Source: Bdellovibrionota bacterium (GTDB lineage Bacteria; Bdellovibrionota; UBA2428). Taken from it: a stretch of 64,000 bases of DNA. Each line of letters opens with the position of its first letter. Positions within the stretch are counted from its first letter, which is position 1. The stretch lies in the NCBI GenBank assembly GCA_044347615.1, contig JBIKUK010000001.1, positions 299,863-363,862 on the forward strand, in the 5' to 3' direction. This document shows, piece by piece, positions 4,775-55,896 of the stretch. Position numbers and translations under genes: made by a program. Below the pieces are notes generated by a model. That model searched no databases. It was not told where the DNA came from and saw only the letters and a list, made by a program, of their open reading frames with translations.

Positions 4775-4848
4775 TGGAGGCGGCACCCGGATTTGAACCG
4801 GGGGTGAAGCTTTTGCAGAGCCTTGCCTTACCACTTGGCTATGCCGCC
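4775..4848 (-). tRNA. tRNA-Cys (anticodon GCA), CCA encoded
   Basis: Minus strand reads GGCGGCA-TA-GCC..GGC-A-AGGCT-CTGCAAA-AGCTT-CACC-CCCGG-TTCAAAT-CCGGG-TGCCGCC-T-CCA: 7-bp acceptor stem, 5-bp anticodon stem with GCA at positions 34-36, T-arm with TTCAAAT loop. Confidence 0.9.
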
Positions 4849-4952
4849 TTTGTTAATTGAGAGCCTCTTTATACCCTAATGGCTCCCTCACACAATCTCA
4901 ACACCTCTTTAAATGCAAAATTGCTGCAAATTTGGCTATGATTGCAAAGCTT

Positions 4953-4983
4953 CCCTTGACTTCTGCCATGCGAATCCCCAGAT
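4953..4983 (+). promoter_or_regulatory. sigma-32 (RpoH)-type heat-shock promoter candidate
   Basis: CCCTTGAC (4953-4960), 15-nt spacer, CCCCAGAT (4976-4983); matches the CCCTTGAA-N13-15-CCCCATNT consensus at 7/8 + 7/8; lies just upstream of the fmdB-like ORF and groES-groEL. Confidence 0.45.
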
Positions 4984-4999
4984 TCAATATGCCGTACGT

Positions 5000-5317
5000 A
5001 TGATTTACGAGTACAAATGCCAAGACTGTGGCCAAATTAACGAATTTTGGATGAAGATCTCCGATCCTTCTCCAACAGAGTGCCCTAGTTGTAAGGGTCC
5101 TAAATTAGAACGTATTATTTCTAAAACATCATTCGCTCTGAAAGGGACAGGATGGTACACCTCTGACTATAAGAGAGCAGGAACGTCTGCTCCGACTTCA
5201 ATAAGCTCTACAGCGTCTTCAGCTGCGGATTGTTGTGCGGGAGCATCTTGCGGGAGTTCATCACAGAGCTCAACAGGCAGTTCAACAACGAGTTCTTCAA
5301 AAGGGGACGCAAGTTGA
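5000..5317 (+). CDS. FmdB-family zinc-ribbon protein (CxxC...CxxC) with Ser/Thr/Cys-rich low-complexity tail
   Basis: Internal ATG at 5000 gives MIYEYKCQDCGQ...ECPSCKG, the typical N-terminus of FmdB-family zinc ribbons. The track ORF starts at 4913, but that extension would contain the sigma-32-like promoter, so the shorter start is preferred. Confidence 0.65.
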   Translation: MIYEYKCQDCGQINEFWMKISDPSPTECPSCKGPKLERIISKTSFALKGTGWYTSDYKRAGTSAPTSISSTASSAADCCAGASCGSSSQSSTGSSTTSSSKGDAS

Positions 5318-5416
5318 AAATGAAATTTGGAAAACAGATTTGCCTAGAGGCAGATCTTTATAAACAGAGCGCTGAAAAAACTTCTCAGTGCCTGTTAAAA
5401 ATTTAAGGAGGAAGTT

Positions 5417-5704
5417 ATGGCAATAAGACCACTTCATGATCGTTTACTTGTAAAAAGACTTGATGAAGAAACTAAAACAAAAGGTGGAATCATCATCCCT
5501 GATAGCGCAAAAGAAAAACCACTCGAAGGTGCTGTTGTCGCTGTAGGCAAAGGAAAGCTCAGCAACGAAGGAAAAGTTACTCCTCTTGATGTAAGAGCAG
5601 GAGATAAAATTCTTTTCGGAAAATACGCTGGAACAGAAGTTAAAATTGATGGAACTGAGCATCTTATTCTTCGTGAAGAAGATGTCCTCGCTATTATAGA
5701 TTAA
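5417..5704 (+). CDS. groES: co-chaperonin GroES
   Basis: 95 aa, [14 protein letters not shown]...[13 protein letters not shown]; AAGGAGG ribosome-binding site 7 nt upstream. Confidence 0.97.
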
Positions 5705-7381
<1,677 letters not shown>

Positions 7382-7413
7382 GTCGAACAGCCAAAATATT
7401 GTTCTCCAAAAAA

Positions 7414-7446
7414 CCCTCGGTCTCGAAAGAGATCGGGGGTTTTTCA
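7414..7446 (+). terminator. rho-independent terminator after groEL
   Basis: ccctcggtctc-gaaa-gagatcggggg stem (about 11 bp with G-U pairs, GNRA loop) followed by a T-run. Confidence 0.7.
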
Positions 7447-7526: not shown

Positions 7527-9374
7527 GTGCAGTCTGTGGGCTACTTTGGAAGAAATTTTTTTTCTCTTTTATTTATGAGCTTTTTTTTGCAGTCTTGTTT
7601 GGTTCAGCAAGCACCTGAAAGAGGAATGACTTCACCAGGAAATAATTCAACCCCAAATCAGACAAACACTCTAGGGCTTTGGAGTCGAAGCCCTGTTCAA
7701 AGCGCTGGATATTTAGTTGATGCAGGTGATAATTTAGAAATATTAAACAGGCAAAGTGTAGTTTTGTACGATCTGTTGAGTTCAAATGGAAATCTAAATG
7801 GATCGACGGTGAATGTTTATTATTCTCCTAACGACAAGAATTCCCCTCGTTTGAATGCCTATGGTTCAAGTAAAATCCCTTGGAGTAATAAAGATTTTCA
7901 AGCTTACATGGTTTATGCGCATACAAGTGGTGCCTATAGATATATTCAGTCGCTTTTTCCAGATATTAAATTTGAGGTAAACGGAAAGAATCTTTTTCCT
8001 GTTCCTGCTTTTGCTCTCGTAAAGGGATCTCCTTTTGAGACCGGGTATATAGTTAATTATTCGAGTTCTCAATTGGGAGCTCTTATGTTTTATGGAGAAG
8101 ATGACCCGAGTTTTCCGTACAATGTGAGTGATGAAGCAGACGTGATTTATCATGAAGTTGCTCATTCTTTTCAGCATGTTTTAAATCCAAGCGTTATGGA
8201 AACTCCAGGGTATTACGATATGGATATGCTGCTTGAAGCTCTTGCAGATTTTTTTGCTGCGAGCGCCCTAAGAGACGACAAGATTTTACTTTACTTAGAA
8301 GCAAATTCTCCATCTTATGGTGCAGATCGAAACGGATCTAATCAAATAAGACGACTCGATGGAAGTCTTTCTTTTCCCAAATCATATGTTGGAGAATACC
8401 ACTTGGATGGTCGAGTGATTGCAAGTGCTCTAAATGATGTGCGTAAATATCTAACGAATCAAATTGTTATTGTTTCGCAACCAACGAGCAAGTCGCTTCG
8501 GTGGTTAGCTTCAAAGCCGCTTACCACGAGTCAAGCTTTTGATAAGGTATTGGTTTCTTCTCATGAGGCGCTAAGGGTAATGCTTCCTACATCTACAGTT
8601 TTATTTTTCACTCAAAAATTTTTAGATAATTTAATGGAGGGTGATTGGAGTGTTTATTGTGGAGTTGATTTAAGTTGCGAGAATCGATTAAGAAGCGATG
8701 TCATTTCTATTTTAGTTTCAAGAGGCATATATAAATCGTCAAACGATCTGAGATCTAAATCTTTTAGTGTGGGTTTGTTGGATGATATGGGTATTAACCC
8801 TTCTGGTGCCGAGATTATATTTGATAAAACCCTTAAGTTTTTTCCGCTTTCTCCTTCAAATGGGTACTCAAATGTAGATGCTTCTGTCGATAAGTGTGAA
8901 GCTCTTTTGGTGACACCGAATTTTTATTTAGCCTCAGGAGTCGCTCATTCTGTTTATGATACGTTGTTTAGATTGAAATCCTCTCTGGGATTGTCCTCTT
9001 ATCGAAGCATTGACCTTTTAAGTGCTTCCTCAACGAGTTCTGCAAAAACTTTAAAGCTTTTTGGATTCATACTTCCAGGTGAAGATACGTTTGAAGCGAT
9101 TACAAGCAATCGTTTTTACGATGATCATCAAGGAAGTCACTTAACGTCTACGTCGTTAAGCCCAGAAAATCCATCTGCCTTGGGGTGGGCTGCTCGCGCG
9201 CCAGCAGTTTTGTATCCAAATGATCGATCAAATACAGGTCGGGGAGCTATCACTTACGAAATGAGTTTTAGACCCTTTGAATTGTTAAATGCGCCAAATT
9301 CTGTTTATTCAGTATTGAACATAACTCAATCGGTATATGTTTCTGGTACAGCTAATTTTTGCTCAAAGAACTAA
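7527..9374 (+). CDS. putative secreted zinc metallopeptidase (HExxH), probable lipoprotein
   Basis: 615-aa ORF with GTG start; N-terminal hydrophobic segment ending in LQSC (lipobox-like); HEVAH motif in DVIYHEVAHSFQHV. Family not assignable by eye. Confidence 0.55.
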   Translation: MQSVGYFGRNFFSLLFMSFFLQSCLVQQAPERGMTSPGNNSTPNQTNTLGLWSRSPVQSAGYLVDAGDNLEILNRQSVVLYDLLSSNGNLNGSTVNVYYSPNDKNSPRLNAYGSSKIPWSNKDFQAYMVYAHTSGAYRYIQSLFPDIKFEVNGKNLFPVPAFALVKGSPFETGYIVNYSSSQLGALMFYGEDDPSFPYNVSDEADVIYHEVAHSFQHVLNPSVMETPGYYDMDMLLEALADFFAASALRDDKILLYLEANSPSYGADRNGSNQIRRLDGSLSFPKSYVGEYHLDGRVIASALNDVRKYLTNQIVIVSQPTSKSLRWLASKPLTTSQAFDKVLVSSHEALRVMLPTSTVLFFTQKFLDNLMEGDWSVYCGVDLSCENRLRSDVISILVSRGIYKSSNDLRSKSFSVGLLDDMGINPSGAEIIFDKTLKFFPLSPSNGYSNVDASVDKCEALLVTPNFYLASGVAHSVYDTLFRLKSSLGLSSYRSIDLLSASSTSSAKTLKLFGFILPGEDTFEAITSNRFYDDHQGSHLTSTSLSPENPSALGWAARAPAVLYPNDRSNTGRGAITYEMSFRPFELLNAPNSVYSVLNITQSVYVSGTANFCSKN

Positions 9375-24707: not shown

Positions 24708-24808
24708 TCAAAGTGTCTAATGTTTGGACAATTGTTAAGAGCGACTTAATTTTTTTTTGACACTTTATGAAGAAGCTTTCTCGTTAAACTCGAAGCATGG
24801 AGCGGAAG

Positions 24809-26419
24809 ATGGCAAAGCACGCTGCTTTTAAAGCATTTCTTTTAACTTTATTCGTGGGAACCTTTCAAAAGACTCATGCAGGAGTCAACGTGAACAATGG
24901 TAATTTTTATATTACCTATACGGATTTTGCGATTTTTACTCCTGGTTTACCCATTGAGGTCTCTCGAACTTACAATAGCCGCTCAAGTTATATCGCTGGA
25001 AAGTTTGGAGTGGGTTGGTCAAGCGAGCTTGATTCTTACTTGAAATTTGAAAACAAAGATGTTGTTTATTTCGAGGGTGGTGGGGGAAATGTTCTTCGTT
25101 TTACTCCAAAGAATGAAAGCCTTTGGGAAAATAATCAGCTAGGAACTCAAAACGTTAAAAAAGTTATTAAAGATAAGGTTACCTCTTTTCAGCTGCAAAC
25201 AAATGTTGGAAAATCTTATACTTTTAACTCTTCAGGGCAGTTGATTAAAATTCAAGATGGAAACAAAAACTATATTGAACTTTCTTATGAAAAAAGCGCT
25301 TTTTCAAAAATTAAAGACAATTTTAATAACCAAGTTATTGTAAGTGTTGAAGATGTCGCTGGCTTTGTTCGCGTGAAGTCTCTTAAGTCAGGAGATAGAA
25401 AAGCTAGCTACGAGTATAACAAGAATGGAGACATGATCACGGCTGTGACCATGGATGGTGCCCGTTATGTTTATAGCTACGACGATCAGCACAACATGAC
25501 AAAAGTTTCTTATTCTAATGGAACAAGCAAGACAATGGAGTACAACAAAGTTCGTGATTGGATCACAGCTTTCAAGGATATAGACGGATCATCAATTAAG
25601 TACGATTACTTCACGGATACTCTTGATCCAGAAAATCGTTTCGGAACAATTGTTTCACGAAAAGATAGCACAGGAAAAGAAGAGGTTGCGCGTTATTGGT
25701 ATGAGTTTCGTAAGCGTAAAGACCTTTCTCGTTACGCTTATCGAACGGTATCATCCTTTAATGATCAAGCGACGGAGACATTGTTAACGGAATGTTGTGG
25801 AACTCCAATTACAATCACTCAGTGGAGCATTTCAGAAGTTAGTAACCCTACAAAAAACTTAGCTTGGACGCAGCCTGTTGGAAAAAAATCTTCCACAAGC
25901 TTTGAGTATTACGCTGATGGAACATTGAAAAGAAAAACTCTTTCTAATGGATCAGTAATCAGTTTGGCCTATGATTCTTCTAACAAGAAAATTACCAAGC
26001 TTGAAAAAGATGGTAATAAAATTGAGTATTCATATGATGGAAGACAGAATCTAGCATCTGCAAAAGATCATTCTGAAAAACTAAAAATGGATTTTACGTA
26101 TGATGTTCAAGGAAGAATTACAATTGTAAAAGAAACTCCATTGAAAGGTGCTTCTGGTGAGAGAAGCTTGTACTTTAAGTACAATTCAGATGGGTTGCCA
26201 GTTGAAGTTAAAGAGAGAAACTACGATGGCAAAGTCGCACTTATTAAAATGACTTATTTTCCAAATGGTCAAATTAAAGAGGTTTTAAATTCTAGTGGGC
26301 GTACAATTGCTTCACAGGGTGATCTCAATGTGACTCAAAGAATTTATTCAACCTTTCAACGAGTGCTTGAGGTTATTCAGCCTACAGGAGTGAGTCTCAA
26401 TGCGGAAGGAACCATTTAA
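24809..26419 (+). CDS. secreted YD-repeat (Rhs-family repeat) protein, short form without recognisable toxin domain
   Basis: Signal peptide MAKHAAFKAFLLTLFVGTFQKTHAG (second ATG at 24809 has GGAG upstream; track start is 24797); repeated YD units (YEYNKNGDMITAV, YVYSYDDQHNMTKV, IEYSYDGRQN, FTYDVQGRITIV, LYFKYNSDGLPVEV). Confidence 0.7.
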   Translation: MAKHAAFKAFLLTLFVGTFQKTHAGVNVNNGNFYITYTDFAIFTPGLPIEVSRTYNSRSSYIAGKFGVGWSSELDSYLKFENKDVVYFEGGGGNVLRFTPKNESLWENNQLGTQNVKKVIKDKVTSFQLQTNVGKSYTFNSSGQLIKIQDGNKNYIELSYEKSAFSKIKDNFNNQVIVSVEDVAGFVRVKSLKSGDRKASYEYNKNGDMITAVTMDGARYVYSYDDQHNMTKVSYSNGTSKTMEYNKVRDWITAFKDIDGSSIKYDYFTDTLDPENRFGTIVSRKDSTGKEEVARYWYEFRKRKDLSRYAYRTVSSFNDQATETLLTECCGTPITITQWSISEVSNPTKNLAWTQPVGKKSSTSFEYYADGTLKRKTLSNGSVISLAYDSSNKKITKLEKDGNKIEYSYDGRQNLASAKDHSEKLKMDFTYDVQGRITIVKETPLKGASGERSLYFKYNSDGLPVEVKERNYDGKVALIKMTYFPNGQIKEVLNSSGRTIASQGDLNVTQRIYSTFQRVLEVIQPTGVSLNAEGTI

Positions 26420-26423
26420 TTTT

Positions 26424-26726
26424 ATGAAAAAAACATTTTCTTTAGTTCTTGGGTTCTCTTTTTTCGTTTTTTCTAATTTTGCTCAAGCACAATTTGGACA
26501 ACCGCCTATGTTCATGGATGCTCAAGCTTCCCAAATGCAAATGGGACAAATGCAAATGATGGGGCAGGGAGGAATGCCTCCGGGTTTTGTAGGACAAGTT
26601 CCAGGTAGTTATAACGATGCTCAATGTTTGAATGCAGCTATGATGATGCCTCAGGCTCCCTTGACCCCAGCTTACTATAATCAACAACAGCAGCAGCTTA
26701 TGAATGGACACCAGCAGGGTTTTTAA
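26424..26726 (+). CDS. small secreted protein, Gln/Met/Gly/Pro-rich
   Basis: ATG at 26424 gives MKKTFSLVLGFSFFVFSNFAQAQ signal peptide, then MQMGQMQMMGQGGMPPGF...NQQQQQLMNGHQQGF; the track start at 26400 overlaps the upstream gene. Confidence 0.5.
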   Translation: MKKTFSLVLGFSFFVFSNFAQAQFGQPPMFMDAQASQMQMGQMQMMGQGGMPPGFVGQVPGSYNDAQCLNAAMMMPQAPLTPAYYNQQQQQLMNGHQQGF

Positions 26727-27586
26727 ACTTCGATTTGAACCATTTTATTAATCAAGAAAAGTCCAATTGCTACTAGAGTAAGTGCGATTAAAATAATGAT
26801 AAACCCGGGAATGGTTGTGAAAAGCGGTCGTGTAAGTTCAGGATCAATCGCATACATCATGCCCGCTACGCCAAACGGAACGCAGCCAACAATAATGCCT
26901 GCTGTGCGACCTTGAGCAGTGAGAGCATTAATTTTATTTTGAAGCTTTGAGCGTTCTCGAATCGTTTTGACGATTGTATCGAAAGTTTCGGCCATGTTAC
27001 CGCCGGTTTCACGCAAGATATTTACACTAGTTGCAAAAATGTAGATTTCTTCAGTCTTGATTCTTTTTGCTAAGTTTTCAAAACCTGCTTCAAGAGGAAC
27101 CCCGATTCTGTTTTGATCTAGAACAAGTCCAAATTCTTGACTTACAGGTGCGGGCATTTCATCAACAACAATCTGCAGTGTTTGAGGAACGTTTAGGCCA
27201 GAACGTAAGCCGTTCGCCATCAAGGTCAGTGCGTCGATCATTTGTGCCGTAAATTCTGTAACTCGTTTTTTTCTAATAATCGATGATGCATATATTTTGG
27301 GTAGGCGCATCCCCCAGAAAAAAAGAAAGACCCCAAAAATAATTCCTAGTGTTTTGTTGGGAAAAATAAAAATTACAAAGAGAGTTGTACTAAATCCCCA
27401 AATAAGAATTTCTTTGAGAACTTCCTTTTCTGTTTTAAGTTTGAAAATATCTTCATATTCAGTTTTAAGCTCATCCCGATTTTTTAAAATTTTTTTGTTC
27501 CAAACAAAATCTTCCCAAAAGCTATAAGGAAGGTAGGCAGCTAAGAAAAAACAAATCCCTGCGCCAATGATGACAAGAATATTCAT
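26723..27586 (-). CDS. Flp pilus assembly inner-membrane platform protein (TadB/TadC family)
   Basis: 287 aa polytopic membrane protein with a central cytoplasmic domain, adjacent to the CpaF gene in the Tad locus. Confidence 0.75.
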   Translation of the reverse strand: MNILVIIGAGICFFLAAYLPYSFWEDFVWNKKILKNRDELKTEYEDIFKLKTEKEVLKEILIWGFSTTLFVIFIFPNKTLGIIFGVFLFFWGMRLPKIYASSIIRKKRVTEFTAQMIDALTLMANGLRSGLNVPQTLQIVVDEMPAPVSQEFGLVLDQNRIGVPLEAGFENLAKRIKTEEIYIFATSVNILRETGGNMAETFDTIVKTIRERSKLQNKINALTAQGRTAGIIVGCVPFGVAGMMYAIDPELTRPLFTTIPGFIIILIALTLVAIGLFLINKMVQIEV

Positions 27587-27602
27587 TGCTTTTTCCTCAT
27601 GA

Positions 27603-29774
27603 TTAAGCCGCCTTGAAAAGACCTCGAGGAATCTTGATCCCGTGAGATTCTATTTTTTCTACGAATTTGGGAATGAATCCTGTCGCAACGTGTTTTCCTA
27701 TGACTTTTCTATCTTTGTCTTGTCCAGTTTGTTTGAATAGAAAGATATCTTGAGTTGTTATGACTTCACCTTGCATACCGCATACTTCTGTTATGTGAGT
27801 GATTTTTCTAGATCCATCTGAAAGACGTGATTGCTGAACAATTAAGTGAACAGCGCTGGAAATTTGTTCTCGAATAGCTTTTGCAGGTAAATCCATTCCT
27901 GCCATTAAGACAAGTGTTTCGATACGTGTGAGGGCATCGCGAGGGTTGTTGGCGTGAACTGTCGCCATAGAACCATCGTGACCTGTATTCATCGCTTGTA
28001 GCATGTCGAGGGCCTCTCCTCCCCGGACCTCACCGACGATGATCCGATCGGGTTTCATTCGAAGAGTTTGTTTGACAAGGTCACGAATAGTAATTGCTCC
28101 CGTACCTTCTATGTTTGCAGGACGAGTTTCAAGGCGACCAACGTGTTCTTGAACGAGAGAAAGTTCAGCAGCGTCTTCAACGGTGAGAATACGTTCTGTT
28201 GAGGGAATGAAGCTACTCAATATATTGAGACAAGTTGTTTTACCGGAGCCCGTGCCTCCTGAAATCACCACGTTCAGTCGAGCTTCGATACATGTTCGTA
28301 AAAAATCAGAAATTTCTGGGGTAATAGAACCAAATTTAATTAAATCTTCTGGGCCTAGTCTTTTTTCAGGAAATTTACGTATTGTGATCATTGGTCCATC
28401 GATCGCAAGAGGAGGAATGATTGCGTGAACACGGCTACCGTCTGCAAGTCGAGCGTCAACATAGGGTGTTTTTTCGTCGATTCTTCTTCCAAGTGGATTA
28501 ACAATTCTCTCGATAGCTGCCATGACTTGTACATTGCTTGAAAAAACCACAGGACTTTTCATGTTTTTCCCGCCTTTTTCAAGGTAAATAAGATCAGCGC
28601 GATTGACCATGATTTCACTAACTGTTCGATCTGCAATCAGATCTTCTAAGGGGCCAAGTCCGAGAGCCTCATCAAGAACTTCTTTTACGAGTTTTGAGCT
28701 ATCTTCACGACTCTTCCAGGGATGATCTTCTTTACCAACAATTTCCGTAATAATTTTCATCGCCTTATCTCGAAGCTCCATTTTTTTGGCTTCGTCTAAC
28801 TGGCGGTTAAGTTGTTCCTTTTTTAAATCCATTTTTTCTACAAGTTGTTCATGAATTAAAAGTTTGAAACGACTTCGAGGATCTTGCGGCTCTTTTCCAA
28901 AGCTTGATCGATTACTCGATTTTTTTGATGTGGTATTTTCCGGTGTTTTTTCAGAAGGAGGAGGTGTGGCGGGTTTTGCTCTTTTATAGGCAGAAAGCTT
29001 TTCTAAAATTTTTCCTTCTATGAGTTGTCGACCTAGTTGAATAAGAGCTTTTGTTGTGCCCGATCCAGTTGCAAGGGTGACCATAGGTTGGCCTTTTATG
29101 AGTGCGGTTCTCGCTAGATCGGTTTCTTCGGGAATAGAGCAGACGACTTGACGCTTTAGTGTTTGTTCCAAAAAAGCTGGGTTGTAGGGATTGTTGGGAG
29201 TCATTTTGTTCAGAATGATTTTGACGAATTCTTGAGGAAATAAAAGAGTTTGAATTTTTTCTAAAACTTTTTTTGTTTGATTGAGGACAAGAATTTCGGG
29301 GTTGCTCACAACAAGAATAATTGAGGAGTGTTCAAGTATTTTGATAATACTTCCATCAATTCGAGATCCGCAATCTACGACGGTGATGGGAAATGAACTT
29401 TTGATTGATCGCATGGCGCCGTCCATTTTTTCATCAGTGACATCAATAAGTCTTTCAAGGTTCTGAAGAAGTTGAAGAGAGTGGAGTTGGCTCGAAGCTC
29501 CGCCTAAATTGACTTGAGTCATTATTTTTTTGAGCGAGTCGCCACTTCTTATTTTTCCTTCTATCAGATCATTTCCAAATCCTTTGATTTCTTTATTTCC
29601 AAAAATAAGATTCAAGTCACCAGATCCTTGCATATCAGCATCGATTACGGCGACAGGGATTTTTCGATCAAGGCAAATAGAGAGAGCAAAGTTTCCCGCA
29701 AAAACAGACTTTCCAACTCCGCCTTTACCTCCAACGACTGCAATGATGTGTCCTGAGTTTAGGGGTGCGTTCAT
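27603..29774 (-). CDS. fused CpaE/TadZ-like ParA-type domain + CpaF/TadA secretion ATPase
   Basis: 723 aa; N-terminal deviant Walker [15 protein letters not shown] (ParA/MinD/CpaE-like), Pro/Ser/Thr-rich linker, then CpaF-type ATPase with Walker [14 protein letters not shown] and downstream TVEDAAEL...[11 protein letters not shown] motifs. Confidence 0.85.
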
Positions 29775-29775
29775 T

Positions 29776-31524
29776 TTATCTCCTCAGCCTAAATTTACGT
29801 TTTAAGCTTTCTGTTCCCGCTCCGGGAGTTTGAATAGTTGTGGGCGTGACAAAGATAATCATTTGATTTTTTGTGTCTTGAAGTTCATGATTTTTTGAAA
29901 ATTTAAAAAGAGAAATATCATTTGTTGTGGAATTTGGAGGATCTCTTCCTAGTGATACTTGTCTTCGCTCCGAGATAAGGCCTCCTATAGCGGCGCTTTC
30001 TTCATTTGAAACAACAAGTTGAGTTTTGATAGCATACTCTAGGCTACCTGGGGGGGCGTCGGGGGCGGGTTTGTCTTGAATTTCTGCTTGAGTAGCGTTG
30101 ATACTGATTAGAATTTTATCTGTCGTTCTAATGGAGACTGCGGCAAGAGATATATTTGTTTTAATATCTGCAAAAGCCCATGAAGGAGGATTGTTTGCGT
30201 TTCCTGGAATAAAATAGGGAACTTTTAAAACTTCAGCAATTGTAGATTCAGGACCTGGGTTACCGTCTGCTCCATCTTTCACGATAAGCGTCGCAGATTT
30301 TAAAACTCGAGCGTGACCATTTCTGGAGAGTGTTTCAAGAGTGGGAAAGAAACCGCTTAACGTCGCTTGAAACGAGCCAATAAATTTACTGATATCACTG
30401 GAGTAGCTGTAACTTGAATTTGTTGTAATACCTGGGGCCCATTTAAAATTGAAGGCTTTTATGTAGTTACGTACCAGACTGACAAAGTCTACTCGAATGC
30501 TCAAGTCTTTTTCAGGTTCTCCAGCTTGAGCGGGTCTTATACGAACACGAAGCATACACTCGGGCAGGTCTTTAAAGATAGATTCTTTTACGAGTTTGGA
30601 TTCAAGCTTGAATTGATCTTGAATCATAGCTTGGCAAGTTTGAACTGCTACGTCGCGTTCAATTTTTTTATCGACAGCACCTTCCAAAATAAATCGACCA
30701 TTTAGGACTCGAACATAAATATTTGTAGGTTTATCTCTGCCACCGTTAATTTCATCCTGCATTTTTTCTGCTATGTACTGCAAGGCGAGAGGTGAAACTT
30801 CGGCGAGGAGTTCAATAGGTTTTCCTGCAGTTTTATACCCATCATAAACAGTCATGACACGTCTAAGGTCTTTGGGCACAACAATTTGTCCGTCAATAAC
30901 AATGCGATCGCCAATGAGGCGCATTTCAAGACCTTCAATTTTTCCCATTTTTGCTTTTATTTGCTGTAAGAGAACAATCAGATCTTCGTCTGTGACGGTT
31001 ACACGAAAAACTTTAAAAAGCTTTTTCCCGGGAAGCGCTTTTTTGCTTTCGGGGTCAGTTATTTTGTCGTAGGCAAGTATTTGAGTGGTCATAGTTTGCC
31101 CAGTCGTAACAATAGTTGCCCTTTTGGGGGGAAAGCCAGGTTGAAGCATACTCTCTCTATCAAATTTTACAATTCCAGGAATTGTGATTCCCCAGTAAAC
31201 GTCTTTCACGTCTTTTATTTCTGGAACGTCTTCAAGAGAAATAGTGGTGCCTGTTTTTGCATTTGGATTTTTTTTGTTGAGCCCTATGTAAACTTCTTCA
31301 AAGCCATAAATAGGATTTAGTTGATCTCGATTTTTTAGAATTGTTTCTAAATCTGAATCTGCTATTTCGCCTACGAGTTGGGTTTTAGGAATGGTGCTTT
31401 CATTGGCTACAGAGTTTTCTTGGGTAAAGGATGTCTTTGAAGTAAAAACTAAAAGAAATAAAAAAAAGGTTTTTATTAGTTGATGTTTATTCAAAGACGC
31501 CTCCTCCGGATTCAAGTGGGTCAC
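29776..31524 (-). CDS. Flp pilus secretin (CpaC/RcpA family)
   Basis: 582 aa; C-terminal secretin-type region (AAIGGLISERRQ...MIIFVTPTTI); more likely start is TTG at about 31494 (GGAGG upstream, MNKHQLIKTFFLFLLVF signal peptide) rather than the track GTG at 31524. Confidence 0.8.
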   Translation of the reverse strand: MTHLNPEEASLNKHQLIKTFFLFLLVFTSKTSFTQENSVANESTIPKTQLVGEIADSDLETILKNRDQLNPIYGFEEVYIGLNKKNPNAKTGTTISLEDVPEIKDVKDVYWGITIPGIVKFDRESMLQPGFPPKRATIVTTGQTMTTQILAYDKITDPESKKALPGKKLFKVFRVTVTDEDLIVLLQQIKAKMGKIEGLEMRLIGDRIVIDGQIVVPKDLRRVMTVYDGYKTAGKPIELLAEVSPLALQYIAEKMQDEINGGRDKPTNIYVRVLNGRFILEGAVDKKIERDVAVQTCQAMIQDQFKLESKLVKESIFKDLPECMLRVRIRPAQAGEPEKDLSIRVDFVSLVRNYIKAFNFKWAPGITTNSSYSYSSDISKFIGSFQATLSGFFPTLETLSRNGHARVLKSATLIVKDGADGNPGPESTIAEVLKVPYFIPGNANNPPSWAFADIKTNISLAAVSIRTTDKILISINATQAEIQDKPAPDAPPGSLEYAIKTQLVVSNEESAAIGGLISERRQVSLGRDPPNSTTNDISLFKFSKNHELQDTKNQMIIFVTPTTIQTPGAGTESLKRKFRLRR

Positions 31525-32431
31525 TTGCAGGTTTTCTTACGGGGGCAGCGCCCTCAGCTGTGTTGTTCTTAGCAGCGGCGGCAGCAGCAGCGGCAGCTGC
31601 GGCTTGTCGCGCTTCTTCAATTATTCTTTTTTGCTCTCGATCTCGAGCTTCCGCTCGTTTCGAGTCGGGCCCAAGAACTTCATCAAGAGTTGTTGATCCT
31701 ATGTTTGTTTCGGCGCGATCGATGGGGTTTCTCAGTGTAAGGTAAAGATCGGTGCCTTGGGCGAGTGCGTAAATTAAAATTTGAGATTGTTCTGGCGTTA
31801 CTTCTACGGTGACTGTGTTGAAGTTTTTTTCCCCTCTCGCGCTTACTGCTATTTTTCTTTGATTGAGTGGATCGTTTTCATAACGCGTGGGAATGTTATT
31901 CTGGATAATTTCTCCAGCAGCTAAAATCGTAATATTTTGTAAAAGTGTTTTGAGTTCAGTTTGTTTTGATCCATCTGGGTTTGGGTAGCTAACGCTTCCA
32001 ATAATATCCACATGGTCACCAGGCTTAATAAGTTTAGAGACACCTGTATTATCATTTACAGGAATAGACATGGCTCTTTTTGAAGCAGAAACTTGGACCG
32101 CAAGACCTGTCTCAGCGCTTTTGGGTGAGAGTTTTGTCAAAAGTATTTGCTCACCTTCTTTAATGGGTACAAGAGCTACCATGTCTTTAATATCTTTAAA
32201 GTCGCTAAGGGCTCCTGGCTGAATAAATTTGTCGAACTGACTTTCTTGAGTCACCATCGTTTCATCAAGGACTTGCATTTCATTAATATTTCTTGAGGCA
32301 ATCAAAACGGTTGAAGGCTTGCCAAATTTTTCTTTGCTTTCTTGGTCTTGGCTGTATACGTAAAGACCAACAAGAGCCATGCCTAGTAAAGCAAAAGCAA
32401 AACTTACAAAAAAAGCACGCGACTGGTTCAA
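31487..32431 (-). CDS. Flp pilus assembly protein CpaB/RcpC, with C-terminal poly-Ala tract
   Basis: 314 aa; N-terminal membrane anchor, SAF-like region, position between tadE-like genes and the secretin; poly-Ala run near the C-terminus. Confidence 0.75.
   Translation of the reverse strand: MNQSRAFFVSFAFALLGMALVGLYVYSQDQESKEKFGKPSTVLIASRNINEMQVLDETMVTQESQFDKFIQPGALSDFKDIKDMVALVPIKEGEQILLTKLSPKSAETGLAVQVSASKRAMSIPVNDNTGVSKLIKPGDHVDIIGSVSYPNPDGSKQTELKTLLQNITILAAGEIIQNNIPTRYENDPLNQRKIAVSARGEKNFNTVTVEVTPEQSQILIYALAQGTDLYLTLRNPIDRAETNIGSTTLDEVLGPDSKRAEARDREQKRIIEEARQAAAAAAAAAAAKNNTAEGAAPVRKPASDPLESGGGVFE
31572..31603 (-). repeat. (GCN)n trinucleotide tract encoding 11 consecutive Ala in CpaB
   Basis: gcagcggcggcagcagcagcggcagctgcggc on the plus strand; a GC-rich simple repeat inside an otherwise AT-rich gene. 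Confidence 0.6.
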
Positions 32432-32489
32432 TTTAACTCCTTAAATTGATATCGGTTTTTTCTTTGTTAAATTTGAGTTTTATTTCTTC

Positions 32490-32915
32490 TTACTCACAAG
32501 CATCTATGCTTCCGGGACGTCTAAAAACTGTCATTTTATGAATTCGTTGAAGGCCCATATCAACGCCAAGAATACTTGGTAATTTGAATAAGTTGGGTCC
32601 GTCGGTTGAAAGTTGGGGTGTAGCAGAAAAACATGTTTTAGAATTGTCCACGATAATATTTTGAGATCCAGACATAGGAAATTCATAAAGATTTTGAGCT
32701 CCAGATCTATTTGCTCTAGAGACAAGAGGGCCAGAATTAGAGATTTTTGCAAAAGCTGCGTTGCGGGCTGCTTCTTGAAGAAGCGTCGATTCTCGAAGTC
32801 CTATAAAGAAAACAGTACTTACAATTAGAATGACAATAAATAGCAAGACTGCTGGGAGAAACTCAATCATGGCCTGGCCTTTATTGTTTTTGAAACGACT
32901 AATTTTTTTTAACAT
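32490..32915 (-). CDS. TadE/TadG-like pseudopilin
   Basis: 141 aa; N-terminal GQAMIEFLPAVLLFIVIL motif (G-x4-E-F/Y prepilin-like processing site plus hydrophobic helix). Confidence 0.65.
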   Translation of the reverse strand: MLKKISRFKNNKGQAMIEFLPAVLLFIVILIVSTVFFIGLRESTLLQEAARNAAFAKISNSGPLVSRANRSGAQNLYEFPMSGSQNIIVDNSKTCFSATPQLSTDGPNLFKLPSILGVDMGLQRIHKMTVFRRPGSIDACE

Positions 32916-33481
32916 CCATTATCCTCCATGCCTTCCCAGCTATGAAGTGAGTTTCCGCCTCTGAAAAATTTAGAAAAAAATTCTTGAAAAAAAACTTGGC
33001 ATTCTTTTTTAGTTGGCTCACGTCCAAGATTACTTTGAGTAGAAAGATTGAGCGTACCAAATGTTTTTTTTAAATCTTGACCAAGAGGAACCGTTATCAA
33101 GGGCACTTCAAATTCTAAGCGAAAAGGGGTTCTAACGTTACCCGAATTTACGGAGGGAGTGCTAAAATTAGTAATGGTTGCAAGTTTTCTTTTTGAGGAA
33201 AAACCAAAAGGAGTTGAGCCTGATCCAGGGCTTACGTTTGGAACGTAAATTTTCATGGTTCTCGTTGCAGCCTCAAGCTGGGAATTGGGATCGTCCCGGC
33301 TTGCTTGATAAGCACGAGCCGACATAAAAGTTGCGTAACTTAAATATTGGTAAACTGCAAAAGAAACAACAGCATTGTAACTTAAAGAAAGAAAAAAAAT
33401 AAAAGCAATAAAAACAAATATGAATTCGACTGTGCCTTGTCCCTCTTTTTTATGAAATTTAACTTTCATAATTTTTTTCAT
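32909..33481 (-). CDS. TadE/TadF-like pseudopilin
   Basis: 190 aa; N-terminal GQGTVEFIFVFIAFIFFL motif; start overlaps the flp1 stop. Confidence 0.65.
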   Translation of the reverse strand: MKKIMKVKFHKKEGQGTVEFIFVFIAFIFFLSLSYNAVVSFAVYQYLSYATFMSARAYQASRDDPNSQLEAATRTMKIYVPNVSPGSGSTPFGFSSKRKLATITNFSTPSVNSGNVRTPFRLEFEVPLITVPLGQDLKKTFGTLNLSTQSNLGREPTKKECQVFFQEFFSKFFRGGNSLHSWEGMEDNGC

Positions 33482-49130: not shown

Positions 49131-49567
49131 TTGTTCTTTTATCTTTTTTTAGTTTTTTTTCATACTCTTCACAGCCAGAGGGGCTTGTTTTGAAGCCTCC
49201 AGCAGATCCTGTGCCAAGAAGAATATTAAGAAATAAGAATATTACATTTGTCGATGAAGAGAATTTAAATAAAAAAGTTAAAGTGCAAACCAATGATAAA
49301 GTTCTCTTGCACGAAACAAAGTATAGGGTAAAGGGTAGGAGTCGACCAAGCCGAACTGGGAGTGTGGTTGCAGTTATAGATAGTGGAGAAATTGTTGAGG
49401 CGATAAAAGATTCAGAAGATGGAAGGTGGAAAGCTGTTTATTTCAAAAAAAATGACATAAAAGTTTGGGTTCCAATATCAGCTCTTTCCAAAAAAAAATC
49501 GATCAATTCAAATCAATCTTCGTCTGATTTGGATGAATTGGCTGAAGAGGAAAGCCCAGATGATTGA
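49118..49567 (+). CDS. hypothetical secreted protein with SH3b-like segment
   Basis: 149 aa; signal peptide; GSVVAVIDSGEIVEAIKDSEDGRWKAVYF resembles a bacterial SH3 core; acidic C-terminus. Confidence 0.4.
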   Translation: MPFLIVLLSFFSFFSYSSQPEGLVLKPPADPVPRRILRNKNITFVDEENLNKKVKVQTNDKVLLHETKYRVKGRSRPSRTGSVVAVIDSGEIVEAIKDSEDGRWKAVYFKKNDIKVWVPISALSKKKSINSNQSSSDLDELAEEESPDD

Positions 49568-51408
49568 ATTATCTCCTCCGATAATTTCTTAATTTCGTGA
49601 AAAGAAATATTTGAGTCTAGGGAGTTTTTTTGGAATCCAAATCGCTTCTCCTCCAATTTCTTAAAGAGTTCCCGAAGTTTGTTTATTTTTGGATGAGTGG
49701 AGACGTGACAAACATTCAAAAGCATAGTCATTAACTCATCAAAAGAGGCTTCATTTTTTGAAAGTTTTGCAAATCTTAATATTATCCACTCCTCTATGTA
49801 TCCTAGTAATTGTACCAAATTCAAGTCTGGTTGCTTGTTGATTTTCTTTTCAATAAATATCCAAGGATAATTCTGTAAAAGTCGATCTTCTTCCTCTCTT
49901 TTTCTTCTTTGAATAAAAAATAGTGAGGCTAGAGCATAAAGAAAGGCGGGTATTGTCCATACGAAGATTGAAATAGATGTTTTATCTAAGTTTACAAATT
50001 CTTGAGTTCCAGCAAAAATAATACTTTTTCCTTTCTTTTCTTCTGTAAATGGTTTGTTTGAAGGTTCAATGTTTAGTTCAATCGGAGGAATCGGAATTGT
50101 TTCGTATGATTTCTTATCGGGGTCAAAGTAAGACCAAGAGTTAGCTGCTATTTTATAGTCACCTGAATTTTGAGGAACTATTAATACTTCAAAATCCTTA
50201 TAGCCTTCTGATCTATCATTTGTTTCGTAGTTTGTAGCGGTTCTGCTTTTTTGAAGAGAGGAGGGAAGATTTAGTTCGGGTTCTTGAAGTCCTTTTATGT
50301 TTCCTTTGCCCTCAATCCTCAATTTTAAGTTGAAAGCTTCATTTTGAACAAGTTTTTGATTTGGTTGTTCGAGTGATATTTTATAGGTTCCAACTGGTAT
50401 ATTATTTTGACTAATGGAAGCTGGTCTGGGTGGTAAAGGTATAACCGTTACAGGAATGGAACCAGATGTTTTGTTGAATAGTTGATTCTGGCCTAGCGTT
50501 AGTTGTGGGTTTTGCATTTGTTCTAGCATCTGAAATATATCAGTATCCACTTCGAACCTCATTTTAAGTGGATCTATAAGAAGTTCACCGCTTTTTATAG
50601 GAAATAGTGCAAATCTAATAATCTCTGCTTTAAAGTAATTGTTGTTCCTATATTCAGTTCTTTCAGGACGCCAGTTTTTAGGAATAAAGAGTTGTTCTTT
50701 TAAGAAATCTTTAAATGTTGGAAAAGAACCAAATTCTAAGTTTCTAAATATATTTTCATTTGTATAAATATAAAACGGAAGCGTAATTAGCTCGCCCACA
50801 AAGACCTGTGTCTTAGAGGGTTCTGCTACAACAAAAACATCAAGCTGTTTATTTTTATTTTCTGGCTCAATTCTGTTGAGAGGTTTTTCTTCATCAAGTT
50901 CAAAAAGATTAAAAAATGGAAGTCTTGTGTTGGGTTGAACCTGCGGTAATTGCTGTTTCGGTCTTAGACTTTTTACGATTATAGATGCTTCATCAATATT
51001 AAAAGTTTTGTTAGGTGCTGAAATTATAATTTTAGGTGTTTTGATTTCCCCTATCTTTAGGGGTACAAGGGTTAACTTTAATAATGAACTAGATTTACGA
51101 GAAGATTTTCCATTAACAAAAAATGTCTGAGTTTTTTTTAAAATCTGTGGTGCAGAGATTTCCCAGCTTTGACTTTTGTCTTCAATTGATTTCAACGAAA
51201 GATCTAACGGAGTCGATTCTTTGCTATCAATTTGAAAGCTAACTGTTATGGTTTGTCCTGAGCTTTCCCTAGGTTCAATTTTAATTTGAACATTGTTGGA
51301 TGGATCTTCTTTTGATGAAACAAGATCAGAGAAATTTATAAGAGTAAAAAAAATGATAAGTTTAATTTTTTTCATATTACTTCGATTACCATGGCTTAGA
51401 AGAGCCAT
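49513..51408 (-). CDS. BatD-like protein (signal peptide, large extracytoplasmic domain, C-terminal TM)
   Basis: 631 aa; position as last gene of the MoxR/BatA/BatB operon; single TM near the C-terminus (FVWTIPAFLYALASLFFI). Confidence 0.55.
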   Translation of the reverse strand: MALLSHGNRSNMKKIKLIIFFTLINFSDLVSSKEDPSNNVQIKIEPRESSGQTITVSFQIDSKESTPLDLSLKSIEDKSQSWEISAPQILKKTQTFFVNGKSSRKSSSLLKLTLVPLKIGEIKTPKIIISAPNKTFNIDEASIIVKSLRPKQQLPQVQPNTRLPFFNLFELDEEKPLNRIEPENKNKQLDVFVVAEPSKTQVFVGELITLPFYIYTNENIFRNLEFGSFPTFKDFLKEQLFIPKNWRPERTEYRNNNYFKAEIIRFALFPIKSGELLIDPLKMRFEVDTDIFQMLEQMQNPQLTLGQNQLFNKTSGSIPVTVIPLPPRPASISQNNIPVGTYKISLEQPNQKLVQNEAFNLKLRIEGKGNIKGLQEPELNLPSSLQKSRTATNYETNDRSEGYKDFEVLIVPQNSGDYKIAANSWSYFDPDKKSYETIPIPPIELNIEPSNKPFTEEKKGKSIIFAGTQEFVNLDKTSISIFVWTIPAFLYALASLFFIQRRKREEEDRLLQNYPWIFIEKKINKQPDLNLVQLLGYIEEWIILRFAKLSKNEASFDELMTMLLNVCHVSTHPKINKLRELFKKLEEKRFGFQKNSLDSNISFHEIKKLSEEIIQSSGLSSSANSSKSDED

Positions 51409-53218
51409 TTTGCTTACCTAGCTCATTACCTTTTTTCTGAGATTCACTTTTTAATTTCTTTTTAATAACTTTTCGCTCTTCACTGCTGATGCTTTGCATG
51501 ATTTGTTTTACTTCATCAGGCGTATAGTTCTTACCTCTGTAGTCTTGAGGCTTTTTATCTTCATCGTTTGGATCTTGGCTTTTATTGGATTTTCCTTGGT
51601 TATTAGATTTTCCTTGACCTTGATTTCCGCCACCGCTTCCTTGCTTTTGAGAGTTTTGTTTTAATAAACGCGCAAGATTGTGTCGGATTATGGGATCTAG
51701 CGTTTTTGAGGGAGGGTCGTTAAGTGCATTATAGTAGCTTTCAATTGCTGCCTGAGTTTTTTTACCCAGTTCGTAGGCTTGAGCAAGTTGGTAAAACCAT
51801 TTTTTTTTATCCAAAGGATCGGGATCTTTTTTGGCCAAAGGCTCTAAGATCTTTGAAATCTCTAGAGCTTCCTCTTCTACAGGGCTTAGGTCTAATCCTT
51901 CTTTTGTCTGCAGATATAATTGTTTATTTTCTATCTGTTTCAGTCGAGATGTTATCCAGTTAAAGATATATTTTTTTTCATTTGATTCACGGTTAAGAGC
52001 TTTTTCAAAAAGCTCTTGTGCGTAATCGAATTTCTTTAGATTGAAAAAGAAGACTCCAATATTATTTTGTAAGCTATCCAAAGTAGTGGAAGCTTGTAAT
52101 GTTTTTTGTGAAAAAAGGGCAATAGCAAAGACAACCTTGGACGAGATTTTTAGAAATTTGTTTCTGTAGTATAAAAAAACTCCCCCCGTCTCAGTTGTTA
52201 TCCACTCTAAAAGTAAAAGAATAATTCCAATAAGAAGAGGAATTTGAAATTTTTCTTCTTTTTCAACTTGGACGCCTTCCTCTTTAAGTTTAAACTCTAA
52301 TTTTTTTAAGTTTTCAGCAAAACTTACTTTAAAGTTTGAAGACTCATCCGCTATGTAAACTTGACCATTAGTTTTCTCTGCTAGTTTTGTTACAAAACTT
52401 TTTTCAGCTTTAGTTTTTGCATCTAAACCCGTTTCTGGGTCTTTTACAAATCCCAAACCGTGACCGTCTTTATCTTTTTGAGGAATAGGGGTGCCTTGTT
52501 TTTTGCCAATTAAAAAAGTTGAGATGGGAATTTTATTCCTGATGAGGCCTTTTATAATGCTTGATTCAATTTGGTTACTGTCATCACCATCGGTGACAAG
52601 GAGTATTGACCCCGCAGTATTTTCTTTTTCGTCATCGTTTTTGGTATCAGTAATATCCTTATACCCTAGGGCCTCCGCGCAAGTTATTACTGCGCCTTGG
52701 ATAAAAGTTGAGGGAAGGCTTACAAAGCTGGGGTTTAGGGGGTTTAGGTAGTCTGCAATAGCATCTAAATCTGAAGTAAGAGGTGCTGCGATAAAAGCAC
52801 CTCCTGCAAATCCGACAAGAGTAACTTTTGTTTTATTTAGATTTTCAAGAAGAAGTATGAGCTCTCTTTTTGCGTATTCCAAACGATTGGGATTCATATC
52901 TTCTGCATGCATACTTTGAGAAAGATCAAGCGCTATGCATAGGTCTGAACCCACGACTTTTTTTATGCTGTGTTTGGCTCCCCACTTAGGTCGCATAAGA
53001 CTAAAAGCAATCAAAGTAATTCCTAAAATAAAAAGAAATTCTTTGAAAACTCTATTTTTGGGTAATTTTTGAGTTTGAGAAACTTCAAGTGTTTTGGAGG
53101 CCTGTATGATTTGCGAGTATTTTTTTCTCAAAAAATGAGTTTTGAAAATTAAATATATTAAACATCCGACTATCAAAAATAAAAAGCTAAATTCTGGTCT
53201 ATGAAATTCAATATTCAT
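51386..53218 (-). CDS. BatB-like protein: 2 TM + vWA domain + TPR-like region + Lys/Gly-rich tail
   Basis: 610 aa; vWA MIDAS context (ALDLSQSMHAED...LLVTDGDDSN); TPR-like helices; low-complexity basic C-terminus. Confidence 0.7.
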   Translation of the reverse strand: MNIEFHRPEFSFLFLIVGCLIYLIFKTHFLRKKYSQIIQASKTLEVSQTQKLPKNRVFKEFLFILGITLIAFSLMRPKWGAKHSIKKVVGSDLCIALDLSQSMHAEDMNPNRLEYAKRELILLLENLNKTKVTLVGFAGGAFIAAPLTSDLDAIADYLNPLNPSFVSLPSTFIQGAVITCAEALGYKDITDTKNDDEKENTAGSILLVTDGDDSNQIESSIIKGLIRNKIPISTFLIGKKQGTPIPQKDKDGHGLGFVKDPETGLDAKTKAEKSFVTKLAEKTNGQVYIADESSNFKVSFAENLKKLEFKLKEEGVQVEKEEKFQIPLLIGIILLLLEWITTETGGVFLYYRNKFLKISSKVVFAIALFSQKTLQASTTLDSLQNNIGVFFFNLKKFDYAQELFEKALNRESNEKKYIFNWITSRLKQIENKQLYLQTKEGLDLSPVEEEALEISKILEPLAKKDPDPLDKKKWFYQLAQAYELGKKTQAAIESYYNALNDPPSKTLDPIIRHNLARLLKQNSQKQGSGGGNQGQGKSNNQGKSNKSQDPNDEDKKPQDYRGKNYTPDEVKQIMQSISSEERKVIKKKLKSESQKKGNELGKQNGSSKPW

Positions 53219-54240: not shown

Positions 54241-55022
54241 CTGGAATTCTCTTTTTTATCTGAGGACTTAGGGATATCTTTCTTTGGAAAAGCCAGGAAA
54301 ATTGTTTTTATTTTTATAAGATAATCTTGCCAAAGTTTTGAGTTAATTGTTTTTTTGGCAAACCTCACATCGTCCGCTGTTTTTAAGACGTACTCTAACT
54401 GAGATGTTAAATTCTGGTTTTTGCTTTGGGTAAGTCCCATGGCCCTAAATGTTCCTATGAATTCCCCAGTCGTAAGAGAGTTGGTGTTTAAATTCAGCTC
54501 GTTTTCTAGGAAGTGTCTTAGATATTTATATATTTCATGTAAATGGGCACTTTCTGGATTTTGAACATTGATTTCGCAATGGAGAATATATTTTTCCAAC
54601 TCCACTCTAGGGTCAAATTTATTTTTTTTCTTTTCTTGAAAAGTAACTTTGTTTTTTCTTTTATTTATATAATAAAAGAACCCCCCAAAGACGGAAAAAA
54701 TAATTAAGAAACAAGCTATATAAAAACCTAGAGGGTAATCAATCTTTTCTGCGTTAAGAGGCGCAAATCTTTGATTAGCAACTTTTGGATCAAGTTCTTT
54801 GATGTTGGCTTGTACGGCCACATTGGAAGAACTACACGGCAATGAAAAGGAAATGGTTCCTGTTTTAAAGGGACCCAGGGTTACGACTTCTTTTTTAATT
54901 TTTAGCACCTTTGCAAGGATTTCTTTTTCATCTGGAAGAGTGTCGCCGGTACTCAATATTGGGTTCTCGCCAATAGGACAGCTTACATTAAATGTATCTC
55001 CCGCGTTTATTTCAATTGCCAT
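54237..55022 (-). CDS. hypothetical single-pass membrane protein within the MoxR/Bat operon
   Basis: 261 aa; one central TM (FYIACFLIIFSVFGGFFYYI); overlaps neighbouring genes by 4 nt at the BatA start, consistent with an operon. Confidence 0.5.
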   Translation of the reverse strand: MAIEINAGDTFNVSCPIGENPILSTGDTLPDEKEILAKVLKIKKEVVTLGPFKTGTISFSLPCSSSNVAVQANIKELDPKVANQRFAPLNAEKIDYPLGFYIACFLIIFSVFGGFFYYINKRKNKVTFQEKKKNKFDPRVELEKYILHCEINVQNPESAHLHEIYKYLRHFLENELNLNTNSLTTGEFIGTFRAMGLTQSKNQNLTSQLEYVLKTADDVRFAKKTINSKLWQDYLIKIKTIFLAFPKKDIPKSSDKKENSR

Positions 55023-55023
55023 A

Positions 55024-55884: not shown

Positions 55885-55896
55885 GTGTTTAACTCC

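Follow-up and report, generated by a model that had tools for sequence, protein, structure and literature searches.

A candidate heat-shock promoter heads a conserved fmdB-groES-groEL gene cluster in a Bdellovibrionota bacterium

The stretch of DNA analysed here (64,000 nucleotides of contig JBIKUK010000001.1, assembly GCA_044347615.1, from a Bdellovibrionota bacterium; hereafter the window) carries the chaperonin genes groES and groEL, directly preceded on the same strand by a small gene for a zinc ribbon protein of the FmdB family. A site resembling promoters of the heat-shock sigma factor sigma-32 lies just upstream of the small gene, and an intrinsic terminator follows groEL (Table 1). An earlier note on this DNA had proposed that a heat-shock-type promoter drives a transcript of all three genes, and the comparative evidence (motif, synteny, short spacers and absence of CIRCE, the controlling inverted repeat of chaperone expression) supports that proposal. 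A sigma-32-class promoter giving rise to a single fmdB-groES-groEL messenger RNA (mRNA) is the best explanation of the locus and, in our judgement, a fairly likely one.

Table 1. Features of the fmdB-groES-groEL locus, in positions of the window
Feature	Position	Strand	Basis or remark
tRNA-Cys(GCA)	4775-4848	-	ARAGORN; Rfam tRNA, 63.4 bits; divergent from the operon
-35-like block CCTTGACT	4954-4961	+	core CTTGAC at 4955-4960; read from the sequence
-10-like block CCCCAGATT, sigma-32 type (CCCCATnT-like)	4976-4984	+	15 nucleotides after CTTGAC
fmdB-like gene, 105 amino acids	5000-5317	+	PF09723, TIGR02605, orthologue alignment; stop TGA at 5317
Intercistronic hairpin 1	5336-5357	+	perfect 9-bp stem, 4-nucleotide loop; RNA fold
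Intercistronic hairpin 2	5363-5396	+	12 pairs, one bulge; RNA fold
Shine-Dalgarno AGGAGG of groES	5406-5411	+	unpaired in the predicted fold
groES (Cpn10, 95 amino acids)	5417-5704	+	PF00166, E 1.7e-36
groEL (Cpn60, 554 amino acids, GGM-repeat C-terminus)	5717-7381	+	PF00118, E 1.2e-76
Intrinsic terminator ending the operon	7409-7444	+	16-bp stem, then TTTTT

The adjacent, co-oriented genes for Cpn10 and Cpn60, 12 nucleotides (nt) apart and followed by a terminator, have the make-up of a groESL operon, and the closest named relatives of the GroEL, at 74-77% identity, come from metagenome-assembled genomes (MAGs) of Oligoflexia, Bdellovibrionales and Bdellovibrionota. The fmdB-like gene ends 99 nt before groES. 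The order Zn_ribbon_8, Cpn10, Cpn60 was found in all four homologues of this gene that lie on long contigs, each in a different setting (ribonucleotide reductase, Na/H exchanger, BamHI restriction-modification system, SLT and others). Conservation of the linkage had been suggested as a check on the proposal, and fmdB-groES-groEL is kept, despite changing flanks, in about 23 distinct loci from Bdellovibrionota/Oligoflexia-like MAGs and metagenome contigs. Among them is the locus with the most similar GroEL (L166, 91% identity), where the stop codon of fmdB abuts the groES ribosome-binding site. Across the related loci the fmdB-groES spacer measures 11-125 nt (36 nt or less in seven) and ends in AGGAGG in every case.

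In a metagenome scan with the orthologue alignment (80 loci), genes of a subfamily with the signature 'MIYEY...GWYT[ST]DYK' were followed by groES wherever downstream sequence sufficed, and those of 'MPLYEYQC' types were not. The neighbours of the non-linked FmdB genes were heterogeneous (GNAT, amidohydrolase, ABC/GGDEF, RNA ligase, glycosyltransferase, L21), and an attempt to read a function of FmdB from them was abandoned, no pattern being found. In L113 (2940-3360) an FmdB-like gene with the motif GWYTTDYKK precedes rplU, the gene for ribosomal protein L21, and not groES. The small gene is missing upstream of groES in L021, L031, L039 and L167-L169, whose GroEL proteins are 70-75% identical to that of the window and whose labels are Bdellovibrionia, Pseudobdellovibrionaceae, Bdellovibrionota, Oligoflexia and Bdellovibrionales; judging from these loci, the fmdB-groESL linkage has a phylogenetic boundary. 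An Oligoflexia MAG beyond it (L167, 4896-5816) has, directly downstream of groEL, a gene for the redox-regulated zinc chaperone HSP33, another zinc/thiol protein adjoining the chaperonin. Within the same phylum, the chaperonin operon groES1-groEL (bd0097-bd0099) of Bdellovibrio bacteriovorus HD100 is heat-induced, and its expression is influenced by an RpoE-like sigma factor (PMC3464611). Unlike the window, the examined loci with the label Bdellovibrionia or Pseudobdellovibrionaceae (L021, L031) lack fmdB ahead of groES, and literature searches found no paper describing an fmdB-groESL operon.

The promoter-like site stands in the intergenic region 4849-4999, between the tRNA-Cys gene and the small gene. 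It consists of CCCTTGAC at 4953-4960, a 15-nt spacer (4961-4975) and CCCCAGAT at 4976-4983. CTTGAC matches the CTTGAA-type -35 element at five of six positions, the C 5' of TTGA included, and CCCCAGAT agrees with CCCCATnT at six of the seven specified positions; the spacer, 15 nt here and 14 nt in most relatives, falls within the sigma-32 range of about 13-15 nt. The pattern CTTGAM-N13-15-CCCCANNT has a single match in the 64 kb, both strands searched, with about 0.02 expected by chance (0.019 analytically, 0.023 as the mean of 1000 shuffles), and when one mismatch is permitted three sites are found versus 0.54 expected. On a two-block matrix the site scores 26.3 bits; 50 shuffled windows reach 19.9 at most, and every other site in the window stays at or below 18.2. 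The close match to the heat-shock consensus with an N15 spacer, as the earlier note had described it, is borne out by these figures; the distance of 17 nt that it gave to the open reading frame (ORF) is corrected to 16 nt, since the ATG stands at 5000 and not at 5001.

The matrix was refined iteratively and applied upstream of fmdB in related loci. The motif cCTTGACy-N13/14-yCCCAnATT precedes the orthologous gene in 22 of them, and L166 is a 23rd (GCTTGACT-N13-CACCAATAT). Over the 22 loci the six core positions of the cCTTGACy block hold 1.2-1.6 bits of information; the C 5' of TTGA has 1.38 bits, and the two C residues ahead of the -11 A have 1.38 and 0.76 bits. The sequences between the blocks show no relationship to one another, and the -10 block stands anywhere between 6 and 179 nt from the ATG. 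Blocks that are kept while spacer sequence and distance change constitute a phylogenetic footprint rather than a chance match. In 355 kb of related DNA, matches of at least 16 bits sit upstream of fmdB except in L126 and L129, which score 16-17 bits, and in L113, where CCTTGACT-N14-TGCCATATT stands before the fmdB-like gene that precedes rplU. The fmdB-less loci L021 and L031 carry CCTTGACT-N13-ATTCATATT and CCTTGACA-N13-GTCCACATT, respectively, directly upstream of groES. From the sequence comparisons we have little doubt that the site in the window would act as a promoter.

The groESL heat-shock operon and promoters read by sigma-32 are textbook knowledge, and the consensus of the groESL promoter read by sigma-32 (RpoH) in E. 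coli and other Proteobacteria is CTTGAA-N13-15-CCCCATnT. The present site resembles such promoters in its two blocks, the C before TTGA, the CCCC before the A, the spacer of 14-15 nt, its place at the head of groESL and the lack of CIRCE; it differs in a -35 block ending in C instead of A, in a -10 block with the 3' half AnAT(T) instead of ATnT, and in the extra small gene between promoter and groES. We call it sigma-32-type on account of two conserved features, the C that precedes TTGA and the CC(C) that precedes the -11 A. Its geometry is also compatible with a delta-proteobacterial sigma-32 profile, CTTGAAA-N11-15-CCCCAT (PMC545781). On balance, the sequence somewhat favours sigma-32 as the specific factor reading this promoter. 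Readings as sigma-54, sigma-E or sigma-28 promoters were set aside on inspection, no resemblance to their consensus, as generally known, being seen.

The strongest competitor is an ordinary sigma-70 promoter, or a dual sigma-70/sigma-32 one, with the reading TTGACT-N17-CAGATT; the operon would then be constitutive and its heat control would lie elsewhere. Sigma-32 prefers TTGAA at -35, and the TTGAC found here is sigma-70-like, agreeing with TTGACA at five of six positions. Spacing is canonical in the sigma-70 reading, A-11 and T-7 are conserved, and the AnATT of the -10 block fits CATnT no better than it fits sigma-70 (A-11, A-9, T-7). What is known of the phylum points both ways. Against sigma-32, B. 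bacteriovorus has a single RpoH-like sigma factor, which has no RpoH box (PMC3464611), so that it is doubtful whether Bdellovibrio has RpoH; in favour of sigma-32, the Bdellovibrio groES1-groEL operon is heat-induced, as said above, and a Bacteriovorax genome carries an RpoH1 annotation (PMC11789641). In the 64-kb window rpoH was not found, nor was a second heat-shock gene (dnaK, grpE, clpB, htpG or lon), and the sole other stress-type gene there, for an HtrA-like protease at 57322-58860, has no match to the promoter motif. Related loci also weigh against sigma-32: CCC is missing in three or four relatives (L089, L094 and L096 among them), the fmdB-less sister loci L167 and L169 have TTGACA-N16-CAATAT, and L168 a similar sequence, with the look of a housekeeping promoter, and the similar site of L113 serves an fmdB-like gene and rplU, which is not a heat-shock gene. 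Against the sigma-70 reading, however, C is kept at -12 and -13, where sigma-70 prefers T at -12, and so is the C 5' of TTGA; a simple sigma-70 scan does not call the site; and a motif with a single occurrence among more than 45 genes of the window does not serve this genome as its general promoter. We regard a sigma-70 or dual promoter as unlikely. Heat induction of the operon appears fairly probable.

HrcA-CIRCE control of groESL is known from B. subtilis, Geobacter, Desulfovibrio and most bacteria. CIRCE was sought as TTAGCACTC-N9-GAGTGCTAA, mismatches being counted over 18 positions, and about 55 of 80 diverse unrelated groEL loci have it, with no more than three mismatches, within 350 nt upstream of groES. 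The fmdB-linked loci have no CIRCE at all (at least five mismatches in each). In the window the best match has seven mismatches of 18 in the region of the operon and at least six anywhere, so that the inverted repeat between fmdB and groES is, as had been noted from the start, a poor match, and an HrcA operator in the spacer or upstream was rejected at no fewer than seven mismatches. What the locus has in common with the HrcA-CIRCE operons is the chaperonin operon itself and an inverted repeat upstream of groES; unlike theirs, this repeat is not CIRCE and is not kept in relatives.

A transcript of all three genes would have to run through the fmdB-groES spacer. The spacer can form two hairpins (Table 1), which together have a free energy of -27.1 kcal/mol and a z-score of -3.6 and leave the groES AGGAGG and ATG unpaired in both the minimum-free-energy and the centroid folds. 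The weak inverted repeat placed by the earlier note at about 5366-5394 does exist, as the stem of hairpin 2, and the stronger hairpin 1 had been overlooked. Each hairpin occurs as a single copy in the window and neither is present in the closest relatives, whose spacers measure 11 nt (L166) and 27 nt (L086); for these two reasons the hairpins are, by sequence, a recent lineage-specific addition. The 99-nt spacer of the window resembles an insertion. Other long-spacer relatives have unrelated hairpins, some of them followed by T-runs, which suggests that intercistronic structure is recurrent and non-essential and may serve RNA stability or processing or act as a leaky attenuator. An origin of the hairpins as a dispersed repeat element was discarded, no second copy being present in the window, where an inverted-repeat search returned nothing; an RNA thermometer of the ROSE or fourU type was discarded too, as the Shine-Dalgarno sequence is unpaired and Rfam matched only the tRNA.

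Alternatively, fmdB and groESL could be separate units in this organism, with the hairpins terminating the fmdB transcript and groES having a promoter of its own in or near the spacer. The spacer is among the longest of the set, its two hairpins are stable, hairpin 1 has TTTAT directly after it and might end a part of the transcripts, which weighs against a single mRNA, a TATAAA hexamer is present at 5359-5364, and T-runs after hairpins occur in several long-spacer relatives, as said above. Yet the TATAAA has no -35 element at a usable distance, a simple scan of 5318-5416 gave no sigma-70-like promoter, and none of the hairpin sites there passes the terminator scan, the T-tract failing its criterion; the first terminator-like site on the + strand comes after groEL. 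The spacers of the closest relatives, in one of which the fmdB stop abuts the groES ribosome-binding site, leave no space for a terminator and a promoter, and a sigma-32-like site is absent from fmdB and the spacer in every locus; of internal promoters, neither a sigma-32-like nor a sigma-70-like one is conserved. Separate units are, on these grounds, very unlikely, and co-transcription of fmdB, groES and groEL, judged from sequence, is highly likely.

The product of the small gene is, by its sequence, a typical member of the FmdB/CxxC_CxxC_SSSS family. It matches PF09723 (Zn_ribbon_8) with an E-value of 9e-14 and 51.6 bits (cutoff 34.4) and TIGR02605 ('FmdB family zinc ribbon protein') with 63.9 bits (cutoff 31.3). 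Its cysteines are residues 7, 10, 28, 31, 78, 79 and 84, of which C7/C10 and C28/C31 form the CxxC-17-CxxC arrangement of a zinc ribbon in residues 1-40; residues 41-58 include an invariant SFALKGxGWYTxDYK motif, and the 46-residue tail has 18 serines and three cysteines, with the sequence CCAGASC. This agrees with the description of the ORF ahead of groES as a small FmdB-family member with a Cys/Ser-rich tail. The close homologues (P0001-P0017) are from uncultured bacteria, one of them labelled Bdellovibrionota. The orthologues are 45-63% identical overall, and their tails are variable and rich in Ser and Ala; 10 of 17 sequences have a C-x(0-5)-C pair there. A lack of conservation of the small ORF had been named as a finding that would count against the proposal; in the 16-orthologue alignment 27 residues are invariant, including M1-I-Y-E-Y, the four ribbon cysteines and FALKGxGWYTxDYK. 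A KG.G[WF]Y motif is family-wide: Streptomyces FmdB proteins have it, and so do 120 of 120 relatives of the Desulfobacterales type. The protein shares with the family (TIGR02605, PF09723) the start of the domain at the initiator Met, CxxC-17-CxxC, the KGSG(F/W)Y segment and a tail that is degenerate and rich in Ser, and that in some members has a Cys pair; it differs from other members in belonging to a distinct 'MIYEY...GWYT[ST]DYK' subfamily that heads groESL.

AlphaFold2 gave a confident three-stranded zinc ribbon, with a predicted local distance difference test (pLDDT) score of about 90 at residues 1-40, and in the model the protein is a Zn(Cys)4 ribbon. Past residue 40 the pLDDT falls below 55, the invariant KGSGWY motif included, and this part is predicted to be disordered. 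We infer that the KGSG(W/F)Y segment, disordered when modelled by itself, may be a motif for docking to a partner. A search of the PDB by sequence found no relative of the protein, and a Foldseek search of the PDB found only generic zinc ribbons (MCM zinc ribbons, Rpo12, rubrerythrin), all with E above 0.05; that these searches point to no function counts against assigning one in connection with the chaperonin. The family was named for an ORF beside formamidase in Methylophilus methylotrophus. To our knowledge its 'regulatory' label has never been tested, and we know of no function for it; literature searches likewise found no functional study and no tested function for the family.

In the window the 16 nt between the -10 block and the ATG contain no Shine-Dalgarno sequence, as is also the case in L081, L086 and L166, where the distance is 14-16 nt. 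It is 6-11 nt in L097, L100, L103 and L136, for which leaderless or nearly leaderless mRNAs are expected, and relatives with leaders of 30-180 nt have Shine-Dalgarno-like sequences. A four-codon mini-ORF (ATG CCG TAC GTA TGA, 4989-5003) lies near the expected transcription start of the window, its stop sharing the letters ATGA with the start codon of fmdB; relatives do not conserve this mini-ORF, which is probably a chance occurrence. Gene calls in public records are inconsistent at the fmdB locus, and its recurrent gene-calling errors deserve attention. P0001 and P0002 start at an ATG equivalent to 4913, through the promoter, and the L166 record (at 2115-2468) misses fmdB, calling instead a spurious 117-amino-acid ORF antisense to tRNA-Cys. 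The longer ORF from ATG 4913 (134 amino acids) was rejected, since the other orthologues all start with MIYEY and the extension crosses the promoter. That the small ORF encodes no functional protein, being instead a leader, an upstream ORF or a chance ORF ahead of a promoter that belongs to groESL, might be argued from the missing Shine-Dalgarno sequence, the low-complexity tail and the inconsistent calls, but is extremely improbable in the face of scores above the curated cutoffs of two family models, 27 invariant residues and four retained ribbon cysteines at so modest an overall identity, a confident zinc ribbon model and the Shine-Dalgarno-like sequences of long-leader relatives.

The arrangement is not confined to one lineage. 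In two more of 80 diverse groEL loci, L052 (Desulfobacterium-like) and L005, groES is immediately preceded by an fmdB-type gene. Searching for homologues of the L052 protein revealed a large family, and its three sampled members on long contigs all showed Zn_ribbon_8, Cpn10 and Cpn60 (L170-172, one each from a Desulfotignum MAG, a MAG with the label Pseudomonadota and a contig without a label). Four Desulfobacterales-type loci (L052, L170-172) and one unclassified locus (L005) thus share the fmdB-groES-groEL order. The Desulfobacterales-type loci have a conserved upstream element of their own, CCTTGACAAGGAAtAAAGACTGACTAtTTTA (at about 3170-3215 in L052 and upstream of 2501 in L170, L171 and L172); it includes the palindrome CCTTGaCAAGG and may function as promoter and operator at once. 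Like the window locus, the Desulfobacterales clusters (Desulfotignum and Desulfobacterium MAGs) have the three-gene order, the protein architecture and no CIRCE; they differ in the FmdB subtype (MPIYEYEC...GWYVTDYGG), in the upstream element, which lacks the CCCC box, and in having no tRNA-Cys neighbour in L052, the sole locus of the group scanned. An association found in at least two distant lineages points to functional coupling rather than an inherited accident.

Of 21 related loci scanned, 16 have a tRNA-Cys gene on the - strand upstream of fmdB, no more than 350 nt away in 14 of them, and such a gene is also visible in L166; it is absent at the fmdB-less Bdellovibrionota loci, L052 and L005. 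It is a conserved neighbour that would lie outside the operon transcript, and its presence may be mere old synteny or may have some connection with a small protein containing Cys. The promoter motif was also considered as a divergent promoter of this tRNA gene and rejected, its orientation being wrong and its distance from tRNA-Cys ranging from 66 to more than 2000 nt among loci. Directly after the groEL terminator the window has a + strand ORF of 615 amino acids (7527-9374) that matches no Pfam or NCBIfam model, with a lipoprotein/signal-sequence-like N-terminus and a HEVAH motif. Farther away, the regions 24797-33481 and 49513-56886 contain an RHS-repeat protein, a PF10136 site-specific recombinase, a Tad/Flp pilus cluster (secretin, RcpC/CpaB, ATPase, TadB/C-like) and a Bat-like cluster (MoxR-DUF58-VWA-BatD).

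In the model that we propose, the sigma-32-class promoter at 4954-4984 would start an mRNA covering the fmdB-like gene, groES and groEL and ending at the terminator after groEL. The fmdB-like gene would be read from a leader of about 7-10 nt without a Shine-Dalgarno sequence, and groES and groEL would each be read from a strong ribosome-binding site; from this difference, the zinc ribbon protein is probably far less abundant than the chaperonin, although made from the same stress-responsive transcript. The hairpins of the 99-nt spacer would most likely serve to stabilise or process the RNA, or else work as a leaky attenuator, and the spacer would not be an operator, as it is not CIRCE and leaves the groES ribosome-binding site unmasked. 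As to the zinc ribbon protein itself, our best guess, drawn from the operon linkage, is that it assists or regulates the chaperonin/heat-shock system as a factor of low abundance that depends on zinc or thiols. A more specific role, as a dedicated chaperonin partner, is suggested by the lack of CIRCE at all the fmdB-groESL loci found, which belong to at least two unrelated lineages: the protein might replace HrcA-CIRCE as a feedback regulator that GroEL or the zinc/thiol status titrates, or might be a small co-factor or adaptor of GroEL. We consider this improbable; if true, it would provide the first function for a very large family of small bacterial proteins.

We rate the operon as a form of the groESL heat-shock operon that is specific to its lineage. 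Its promoter is nothing unusual, and what is new is a conserved third cistron between a heat-shock-type promoter and groES, which is found throughout one uncultured Bdellovibrionota/Oligoflexia-like clade and again in Desulfobacterales, always without CIRCE. The FmdB/CxxC_CxxC_SSSS family thereby gains a reproducible and testable context in chaperonin and stress biology.

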